Program-made: the position numbers and the translations under genes
In this document: positions 15,554 to 22,355 of the stretch, in pieces
How the letters are laid out: the number at the start of each line of letters is the position of its first letter
Numbering within the stretch: position 1 is the first letter of the stretch
Assembly: GCF_003334255.1 (NCBI RefSeq)
Contig: NZ_QOWU01000003.1
DNA length: 64,000 nt
Strand: one strand, 5' to 3'
Source: Escherichia coli
GTDB taxonomy: Bacteria > Pseudomonadota > Gammaproteobacteria > Enterobacterales > Enterobacteriaceae
Notes under the pieces: generated by a model
The model's database searches: none
What the model saw: only the letters and a program-made list of their open reading frames with translations
Told to the model about the DNA's origin: nothing

Positions 15554-15716
15554 AATAAATTCTCCTGACAAAAAAGGGGCTGTTAGCCCCTTTTTAAAAT
15601 TAATTTCAGGTGGAAGGGCTGTTCACGTTGACCTGATAAGACGCGCCAGCGTCACATCAGGCAATCCATGCCGGATGCAGCGTAAACGCCTTATCCCGCA
15701 TGGAACCCTAAAAACC

Positions 15717-18413: not shown

Positions 18414-19901
<1,488 letters not shown>

Positions 19902-19928
19902 CGCGGGCTTTTCACCTCATCCAGACTA

Positions 19929-20381
19929 TTAAAAGTGGGGAACCAGGTTCGCCTTCTGGATATTACTCAGCGCGAACACTTCATCTTTACCTTCGACGGT
20001 AACTGTGATCATTTCACCGTCTACCGCTTTGATAACGCCCTGCCATTTACGACGGTTTTGTACCGCCATACGGAGAACCAGAGTCACCTCTTCTCCGACA
20101 AAACGGGCGTAGTGTTCAGCCGTGAACAGTGGGCGATCGAGACCCGGTGAGGAGACTTCCAGGTTATAAGCAACGGTGATGGGATCTTCAACATCCAGCA
20201 CAGCACTTACCTGGTGGCTCACATCAGCACAATCATCAACATTGATGCCATCTTCACTATCAATATAGATGCGCAGTGTGGATGTGCGACCGCGAATAAA
20301 TTCGATGCCAACCAGTTCAAAACCCAGGGCCTCAACTGGCGCAGTAATCATCTCTGTTAATTTTTGCTCTAATGTGGACAA
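19929..20381 (-). CDS. rimP: Ribosome maturation factor RimP, 150 aa, probable UUG start
   Basis: ORF track 19929..20393; the 150-aa form [23 protein letters not shown] begins at an in-frame TTG. Confidence 0.85.
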
Positions 20382-20405
20382 GCCCACCCCCAAGACATAA
20401 AAAAA

Positions 20406-20466
20406 GGGCCTAAAGCCCAGTTATTCTGTAGTCAGATAACAAAAAACCCCGATAAATCGGGGCTTT
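20406..20466 (-). terminator. Two tandem hairpin plus U-run structures between metY and rimP
   Basis: Minus strand: gccccgatttatcggggc followed by TTTTTT, then gggctttaggccc followed by TTTTTTT. Confidence 0.55.
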
Positions 20467-20587
20467 ATATAACTGAACCCTATAACCGCAACTGCGGTCT
20501 GGAGCACTTTCCAGAAGGATTTTTTCAAATCCCACTACGAAGGCCGAAGTCTTCACAGTATATTTGAAAAAGGACTCTAAGGGAAAG

Positions 20588-20664
<77 letters not shown>

Positions 20665-20924
20665 CCTGAAACGTGGCAAATTCTACTCGTTTTGGGTAAA
20701 AAATGCAAATACTGCTGGGATTTGGTGTACCGAGACGGGACGTAAAATCTGCAGGCATTATAGTGATCCACGCCACATTTTGTCAACGTTTATTGCTAAT
20801 CATGTGAATGAATATCCAGTTCACTTTCATTTGTTGAATACTTTTGCCTTCTCCTGCTCTCCCTTAAGCGCATTATTTTACAAAAAACACACTAAACTCT
20901 TCCTGTCTCCGATAAAAGATGATT

Positions 20925-20960
20925 AAATGAAAACTCATTTATTTTGCATAAAAATTCAGT
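20925..20960 (+). promoter_or_regulatory. Two adjacent ARG-box-like sites (ArgR operator) upstream of argG
   Basis: aaTGAAAACTCATTta and ttTGCATAAAAATTCAgt resemble the ARG box consensus TNTGAATWWWWATTCAN; about 50 bp upstream of the argG ATG. Confidence 0.45.
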
Positions 20961-20996
20961 GAGAGCGGAAATCCAGGCTCATCATCAGTTAATTAA

Positions 20997-22355
<1,359 letters not shown>

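Follow-up and report, generated by a model that had tools for sequence, protein, structure and literature searches.

Organization of the metY–rimP interval

The window analysed here is a 64,000-nucleotide stretch of an Escherichia coli contig, in which an initiator tRNA gene, a leader and rimP follow one another on the minus strand, with nusA and infB annotated downstream of rimP. RefSeq annotates tRNA-Met, rimP and nusA at this locus. Read in the direction of transcription, the interval contains the following features:

20588..20664, minus strand: initiator tRNA-Met (CAU) gene at the metY position (ARAGORN; Rfam tRNA, 61.4 bits)
20521..20571, minus strand: long imperfect hairpin, RNase III substrate (folding; published cleavage or P2-like 5′ end at 20551)
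20514..20499, minus strand: hairpin A, CUGGA...UCCAG (folding and compensatory changes across Enterobacterales)
20498..20485, minus strand: hairpin B, ACCGC-AGUU-GCGGU (folding and compensatory changes across Enterobacterales)
20481..20469, minus strand: conserved box AGGGUUCAGUUAU; its complement at 20424..20412 takes in the t2 5′ arm; predicted anti-t2 strand
20437..20466, minus strand: terminator t1, a 10-bp stem with a UUUA loop, then UUUUUUGUU (terminator scan, folding, first hairpin of Rfam RF01770)
20399..20418, minus strand: terminator t2, a weak GGGC(U)/(G)GCCC stem, then U7 (terminator scan, folding, second hairpin of Rfam RF01770)
20386..20391, minus strand: Shine-Dalgarno-like (SD) GGGGGU, 4 nt 5′ of UUG (sequence)
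19929..20381, minus strand: rimP coding sequence, 150 codons, UUG start at 20381..20379 (RefSeq annotations, homologue N-termini)

A 1-kb stretch was found in 5426 of the 5426 complete genomes searched and is 100% identical in many E. coli chromosomes. Compared with K-12 MG1655 over 20800..20370 (the MG1655 coordinate being the window coordinate plus 3297625), the window differs at one base, 20618 (G vs A). This base is tRNA position 46, so that the window encodes G46 and K-12 metY encodes A46; G46 in the initiator tRNA gene has been reported for E. coli B strains (PMC6511841). Since the leader itself is identical to that of K-12 base for base, experiments on the K-12 leader apply directly to the sequence studied here.

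Two tandem terminators of the rimP leader family

The original prediction placed two successive GC hairpins, each followed by at least six U residues, downstream of the initiator tRNA, and the sequence, the terminator scan and the family search all bear this out. The first hairpin, t1, reads AAAGCCCCGA-UUUA-UCGGGGUUUU on the minus strand (stem 20466..20443). It has 10 pairs, five of them G-C, closed by a 4-nt loop, with a folding energy of −13.6 kcal/mol, and its U-run (UUUUUU, 20446..20441) continues into GUU. The second hairpin, t2, is GGGCU-UUA-GGCCC (20418..20406, minus strand), with five pairs (four G-C), a 3-nt loop, an energy of −6.2 kcal/mol and UUUUUUU at 20405..20399. A spacer of 18 nt separates the U-run region of t1 from t2, and another 18 nt lie between the end of the t2 U-run and the rimP start codon. 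A consensus terminator scan called both hairpins terminator-like, and in both a G+C-rich stem-loop directly precedes a U-tract, as in intrinsic terminators. By this anatomy t1 is a canonical strong intrinsic terminator, and t2 has the weak GGGC...GCCC hairpin of the NusA-autoregulated leader of the B. subtilis type. In a crude scan of both strands, the two formed the sole tandem pair of terminator-like sites in the whole 64 kb; in 30 shuffled sequences such pairs averaged 0.17 per window.

The family assignment is equally clear. On the minus strand, 20499..20399 is matched by Rfam RF01770 ("rimP leader") over the full length of the model (positions 1–102 of 102) with 102 bits and E = 1.7e-18, the gathering score being 47 bits. 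The two helices of its consensus structure are t1 and t2, and the match lies directly 5′ of the operon rimP-nusA-infB, where members of this family are placed. Apart from rimP and tRNA, a search of 19800..21200 returned no Rfam family at threshold, even at E ≤ 1, and in particular no riboswitch, T-box or ribosomal-protein leader. Weak sub-threshold matches to STnc430 (plus strand, 26.6 bits) and RsmY (19.1 bits) were dismissed. We therefore regard it as very likely that t1 and t2 are the tandem Rho-independent terminators of the E. coli metY-rimP-nusA-infB leader described by RF01770.

The rimP start codon

The original prediction also had the rimP frame with the N-terminus MSTLEQ begin at a TTG codon. 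The UUG at 20381..20379 opens a 150-codon frame (MSTLEQKL...) and is the RefSeq start of rimP both in strain 300709 (PGAP) and in K-12 MG1655 (NP_417639.6). With in-frame GTG (20387) and TTG (20393) codons a short distance upstream, the start is not fixed by the E. coli sequence on its own, and an open reading frame listing mechanically gives a 154-codon version. The GTG, six bases 5′ of the UUG, sits inside the GGGGGU SD and has no SD of its own.

TTG is present in 81 of 81 loci (80 from a protein-anchored scan of Enterobacteriaceae plus the E. coli reference, L001), and likewise in eight further Enterobacterales loci. The segment GGGGGTGGGCTTG is invariant or nearly so within Enterobacterales, and the SD reads GGAGGU in two taxa (L045 and L054). 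The upstream GTG is as conserved as the TTG within this order, so that UUG and GTG are not separable at that depth. More distant homologues do separate them. When the N-termini of 139 diverse RimP representatives are measured against the UUG-started protein, the modal offset is 0 (50 cases); the offset falls within ±3 in 101 and equals +2, the GTG position, in only three. In three relatives at 53–66% protein identity the upstream frame is itself telling: L092 has TGA directly before TTG, in L093 the equivalent of the GTG is GTA, and L095 starts with GTG at the place where E. coli aligns its UUG, a TAG standing four codons 5′ of it and the codons in between including no start. Curated annotation, SD spacing, homologue N-termini and upstream stops in distant relatives thus support a rimP start at UUG 20381, in agreement with the prediction. 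Database entries of 152 to 209 residues exist for RimP, showing that gene callers often over-extend the gene. RimP entries in the PDB simply carry the UniProt sequence. Our literature search found neither direct N-terminal protein evidence for the UUG start nor any statement on the rimP start codon.

Conservation of the leader across Enterobacterales

The protein-anchored scan, with one genome per species, yielded 80 Enterobacteriaceae loci at 92–99% protein identity. To these we added eight loci from Yersinia, Serratia, Xenorhabdus, Photorhabdus, Edwardsiella, Dickeya, Sodalis and Tatumella, and four from relatives at 53–66% identity, the 12 added loci together spanning 53–91%. In the resulting 70 distinct Enterobacterales leaders, the stretch from the conserved box through the first rimP codons is almost invariant. 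This segment of about 105 nt (20481..20376) is far more conserved than the hairpins directly upstream, which vary freely: both-sided changes occur in four of five pairs of hairpin A and in all five pairs of hairpin B. Such near-invariance shows selection on the primary sequence beyond the needs of the hairpins.

The terminator stems follow the invariant part. In t1, 99.4% of the cells are paired across the 70 distinct sequences, and all changes within Enterobacterales are one-sided (G-U to A-U, C-G to U-G). In t2 the figure is 88.8%; the four GGGC/GCCC pairs never vary, and 39 of the 70 leaders lack the fifth pair. No compensatory pair change was seen in either stem among these sequences. As both stems are invariant within Enterobacterales, covariation at this depth neither supports nor refutes them. 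RF01770 matched in all eight loci of the other Enterobacterales genera (84–103 bits) and also in L092, the 66%-identity relative. Three of the four distant relatives (L092, L094 and L095) keep t1 and t2 in tandem 3′ of an initiator tRNA gene, and L093 has only t2. In L095, t1 is CCCCGG/CCGGGG, an A-U pair having been replaced by G-C in one compensatory change; t2 is GGGUC/GGCCC.

A candidate pairing between the conserved box and t2

A candidate that goes beyond simple tandem termination is a structural switch, in which the box AGGGUUCAGUUAU (20481..20469) would pair with AUAACUGGGCUUU (20424..20412), enclosing t1 and sequestering the 5′ arm of t2, while the freed GCCCUU (20409..20404) would pair with the SD. 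A polymerase getting past t1 with the t1 hairpin in place would then bypass t2, and translation of rimP would be damped. Such a switch would add to the known attenuator and not take its place, and we consider it a tentative and rather improbable addition.

Folding speaks for it in several ways. Both the minimum free energy (MFE) and the centroid structures of the leader hold the box:t2 helix, with t1 enclosed, and not t1 plus t2. Hairpin B, t1 and the alternative helix together reach −32.1 kcal/mol, compared with −28.9 for hairpin B, t1 and t2 (unconstrained MFE, −38.1), and at equilibrium the probability of the alternative helix is 0.66–0.96 against 0.03–0.29 for t2. These values derive from equilibrium folding, which leaves out the kinetics of transcription, and the switch structure, having been derived from this same sequence, is favoured in a slide control. 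Among the 70 distinct sequences, 94% of the cells of the box:t2 complementarity are paired, the 8-bp core is paired in about 100% with 11 U-G to C-G changes, and RNAalifold, unprompted, predicts both the box:t2 and the GCCCUU:SD helices. The excess conservation of 20481..20376 over the adjoining upstream hairpins fits as well. However, the core shows no compensatory change, and where everything is invariant complementarity could be a by-product of other constraints. Moreover, the change of CUGGGC to CCGGGC in L092 breaks one pair and the GGAGGU SD of two taxa breaks the SD helix, both without compensation, and L093 and L094 have no obvious box. The box:t2 pairing is absent from the RF01770 structure and from the literature text that we found. 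If it did form, the roughly 105 nt would act as a multi-state RNA and not as two independent terminators; read-through would be set together with rimP translation, which UUG already limits, and NusA, Csp or ProQ might serve as readers.

The transcription signal at t1

Adams et al. (2021, PMC7815308) report 3318065(−) as a Rho termination region with a Rho score of 2.97 (p = 1.3e-38). In our coordinates this position, which has the highest Rho score, is 20440, the base after the t1 U6, so that the sharp drop in DirectRNA-seq coverage sits exactly at t1. In 800-nt windows around this position, counts without bicyclomycin were 4269 upstream and 196 downstream; with the drug they were 3527 and 481, a rise in read-through of about 3-fold (PMC7815308, supplement 2). 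Because the abundant tRNA falls within the upstream window, termination efficiency is not given by this ratio.

These data could be taken to mean that the drop is mainly Rho-dependent and the hairpins secondary. We think this improbable. The anatomy of t1 and t2 is that of textbook intrinsic terminators and matches the Rfam model, and the short, highly structured leader would presumably be a poor rut substrate. Effects of bicyclomycin can also be indirect. In addition, expression of a fusion of the rimP 5′ UTR and ORF fell, and did not rise, in the rhoR66S mutant (Adams et al., PMC7815308). Purely Rho-dependent termination conflicts both with the anatomy and with this fusion result, and we rejected it. 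The part of the Term-seq 3′-end tables of the same study that was available contains no end at 33180xx, the range spanning t1 and t2 (PMC7815308). This absent entry and the fall of the fusion in the rho mutant are unexplained points, not a refutation of intrinsic termination at t1 and t2.

Could the terminated leader RNA be functional in its own right, as a small RNA that ProQ binds and that acts in trans, attenuation being a side effect? The Salmonella rimP leader is among the ProQ-associated sRNAs derived from attenuators (PMC5391140), and the extreme conservation of the primary sequence would suit such a role. Conservation, however, runs into the SD and the start codon, parts that would be missing from a terminated RNA. 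ProQ associates generically with many terminator structures, and no target or phenotype has been reported for the leader RNA. This, too, appears improbable, to about the same degree as a mainly Rho-dependent drop.

Leader-peptide attenuation is the least probable of the alternatives. Here a 48-codon GTG ORF (20556..20410), named CDS115 in a PIRT-Seq study, would be translated through t1; the ribosomes on it would open both hairpins, and read-through would thereby depend on translation capacity. The ORF is present in the sequence, with its TAG stop in the t2 loop, and was recovered by a transposon translation-reporter screen whose authors proposed for it the role of a rimP-nusA leader; its protein, however, was undetected by western blot (PMC12350097). 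Among the 70 distinct leaders, GTG at −175 is found in six, the open frame of 23 is devoid of any start codon, and 13 different stop positions occur, between −82 and +452 counted from the rimP start. The variable part of the leader has diverged through indels and changes that compensate within hairpins, with no codon pattern, and the GTG at 20556 lies upstream of the P2 or RNase III 5′ end at 20551, inside the RNase III stem. With neither start nor stop conserved across the 70 distinct leaders, the CDS115 peptide was rejected. A Nus-factor boxA antitermination site in the leader was likewise rejected, as no match to the boxA-like UGCUCUUUAACAA with up to three mismatches occurs near 20380..20600 (11 matches across the window vs 17 expected).

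Discussion

Our analysis identifies the two hairpins as the long-known t1 and t2 of the rimP leader (RF01770), at a locus that had already been described. Terminators t1 and t2 in the operon metY-nusA-infB go back to Ishii et al. 1984 and Regnier & Grunberg-Manago 1989, as summarised in PMC6511841. Part of the mapping that the original prediction asked for thus exists already, as classical work cited in later papers and as the DirectRNA-seq drop at t1. Brandi et al. (2019, PMC6511841) place promoters P-1 and P0 5′ of metY, P2 3′ of metY and both terminators upstream of rimP, and also describe two RNase III sites. One RNase III site maps to MG1655 3318176 (Gordon et al. 2017, PMC5371410), which is 20551 in the window, inside the long hairpin; the rimP 5′ UTR primer of Adams et al. 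begins at the same base (PMC7815308). The anatomy, the family membership, the conservation and the support for the start codon come from the present analysis; termination at t1/t2, the effects of NusA and Csp proteins and RNase III cleavage are drawn from the literature.

Taken together, the sequence and the literature best support a two-step attenuator. Transcripts from the promoters 5′ of metY, or from P2 just 3′ of it, would all pass t1 and then t2. Most polymerases would stop at these sites, giving a tRNA precursor and a short leader RNA, and the read-through fraction would become the rimP-nusA-infB message. As judged from the literature and the fold, RNase III cuts the long hairpin between the tRNA and t1, parting tRNA from mRNA, and rimP is translated from UUG 20381 with the GGGGGU SD. 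Each of the proximal promoters mapped is located upstream of t1, and the distance from t2 to the start codon is just 18 nt, so that their transcripts must read through both terminators. With the gap between t2 and rimP too short to hold a promoter, polymerases from the proximal promoters can express rimP-nusA-infB only by reading through first a strong and then a weak terminator. That partial termination between the initiator tRNA and rimP-nusA-infB makes this an attenuation point, the central proposal of the original prediction, agrees with published work on the operon and its leader (PMC6511841, PMC2965389).

How is read-through controlled? NusA, itself a product of the operon, lowers operon expression, most likely by stimulating termination at t1/t2. 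The operon is repressed by NusA overproduction and raised in nusA mutants (PMC6511841, PMC2965389), and operon transcripts are higher in mutants with reduced NusA-dependent termination (PMC6511841). Naville & Gautheret (2010, PMC2965389) described the conserved GGGc...gCCC stem as a general rimP-leader motif, accompanied in Gammaproteobacteria by a CCCg...cGGG terminator upstream in a tandem rimP-leader, and took the strong sequence conservation to indicate a protein effector, most probably NusA. In B. subtilis, nusA is autoregulated by NusA-stimulated termination in the leader (Mondal et al. 2016, as cited in PMC12288461). From this precedent, together with the weak stem and perfect U-tract of t2, we infer that NusA may act directly at E. 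coli t1/t2; in the literature searched, where the work of the 1980s is represented through later papers, we found no demonstration of such action. The cold-shock Csp proteins, according to the literature, raise read-through; Csp antitermination in the metY-rpsO operon was reported in work from 2000, as cited in PMC9765468 and PMC11648934. Two further observations bear on the leader more generally. In Salmonella the rimP leader is found among ProQ-associated RNAs derived from attenuators (PMC5391140), and a TraDIS study includes it in a table of non-coding elements that pools required and ambiguous classes (PMC3632133).

The site sets the level of the NusA, IF2, RimP and RbfA message relative to the initiator tRNA, and is thereby a hub that links the control of transcription elongation, translation initiation and ribosome assembly. 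With this role appreciated from the 1980s onward and the element carried in Rfam since 2010, its confirmation adds no new biology: the finding is correct but ordinary, the re-discovery of a described element.

Among known systems, the trp, his and pheM leader-peptide attenuators share with the rimP leader a terminator in the 5′ leader, a candidate alternative pairing and an overlapping short ORF; unlike theirs, however, the ORF of the rimP leader is unconserved, has no regulatory codon run and starts upstream of the main 5′ end. The B. subtilis ylxS(rimP)-nusA leader (PMC2965389, PMC12288461) is closer, having the same operon context, a weak GGGC...GCCC hairpin with a U-run and proposed negative feedback, whereas the E. 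coli leader has in addition the strong upstream t1 and the initiator tRNA gene. The RF01770 family is matched in full, with a CCCCG...CGGGG hairpin upstream and a GGGC...GCCC hairpin downstream, directly 5′ of rimP, although its structure omits the covarying hairpin B (20498..20485) and the box:t2 complementarity. Closest of all is the E. coli K-12 metY-nusA-infB leader, which is the same locus with an identical leader, two terminators, and an RNase III site and P2 upstream of both, and which over 20800..20370 differs only in carrying A46 instead of G46 in the tRNA.

Conserved leader segment and predicted structures

The stretch from the conserved box to rimP (20376..20481, minus strand, about 105 nt) shows almost no variation across genera as far apart as Escherichia, Yersinia, Xenorhabdus and Dickeya. 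It spans the box, terminator t1, the spacer, the stems of terminator t2, the U-runs, the Shine-Dalgarno sequence (SD) and the first rimP codons, and the neighbouring 100 nt vary freely. The primary-sequence constraint on this segment exceeds what the hairpins alone account for. Within and just upstream of it we found several structures:

20469..20481 with 20412..20424, minus strand: predicted alternative helix between the box and the 5′ arm of t2
20404..20409 with 20386..20391, minus strand: predicted alternative helix in which the rimP SD pairs with the 3′ arm of t2
20485..20514, minus strand: two small hairpins just 5′ of the box

The first two come out as the preferred pairings in MFE, partition-function and RNAalifold calculations; neither has covariation support. 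In both small hairpins, compensatory substitutions are clear across Enterobacterales (ACCGC/GCGGT, GCCGC/GCGGC, AUCGC/GCGAU, GCCAC/GUGGC). The consensus structure of the Rfam rimP leader family, RF01770, lacks these hairpins.

Reading frames in the leader

20410..20556, minus strand: 48-codon GTG ORF (CDS115 of PIRT-Seq, PMC12350097), crossing t1 and ending in the t2 loop
20369..20398, minus strand: mini-ORF of nine codons (AUG UCU UGG GGG UGG GCU UGU CCA CAU UAG)

Neither the start nor the stop of CDS115 is conserved in 70 related leaders, so a conserved coding gene is unlikely here. The mini-ORF, which is out of frame, begins directly 3′ of the U-run of t2, and both the SD and the start of rimP fall inside it. 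Most loci keep its AUG; five have ACG or AUU instead (L046, L067, L071, L077, L078). Many database RimP entries have 152-209 residues rather than 150, and these long entries are N-terminal over-extensions through the leader. The leader frame is continuous with rimP in three loci of the comparative set (L025, L032 and L076); in the alignment, the t2 U-run of L076 is one base shorter.

Transcription data at t1 and a terminator-like hairpin downstream of infB

Adams et al. 2021 gave MG1655 position 3318065, equivalent to 20440 of the window, a score of 2.97 and classed it among regions of Rho termination, despite a decrease of their rimP fusion in rhoR66S. Neither t1 nor t2 has a listed 3′ end in the part of their Term-seq tables covered here. 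These observations are discrepant. Farther downstream, the infB-rbfA gap (infB ends at ~15717, rbfA starts at ~15553) contains one further element, consistent with the published t3:

15575..15591, minus strand: hairpin resembling a terminator, AGGGGCUAACAGCCCCU, with a U-rich stretch after it

Initiator tRNA gene and its probable promoters

20757..20786, minus strand: sigma-70 promoter upstream of the tRNA gene, perfect consensus TTGACA-18-TATAAT (12/12)
20680..20709, minus strand: weaker sigma-70 promoter upstream of the tRNA gene, TTTGCA-18-TAGAAT

These two probably correspond to P-1 and P0 of the literature. Within 20800..20370 the sole difference from K-12 lies at 20618 (minus strand), position 46 of the initiator tRNA: the gene in the metY position has G46 here and A46 in K-12. 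The window must accordingly derive from an E. coli lineage other than K-12. A metY-position gene of the G46 type has been described for E. coli B strains (PMC6511841), and tRNA-fMet1 likewise has G46.
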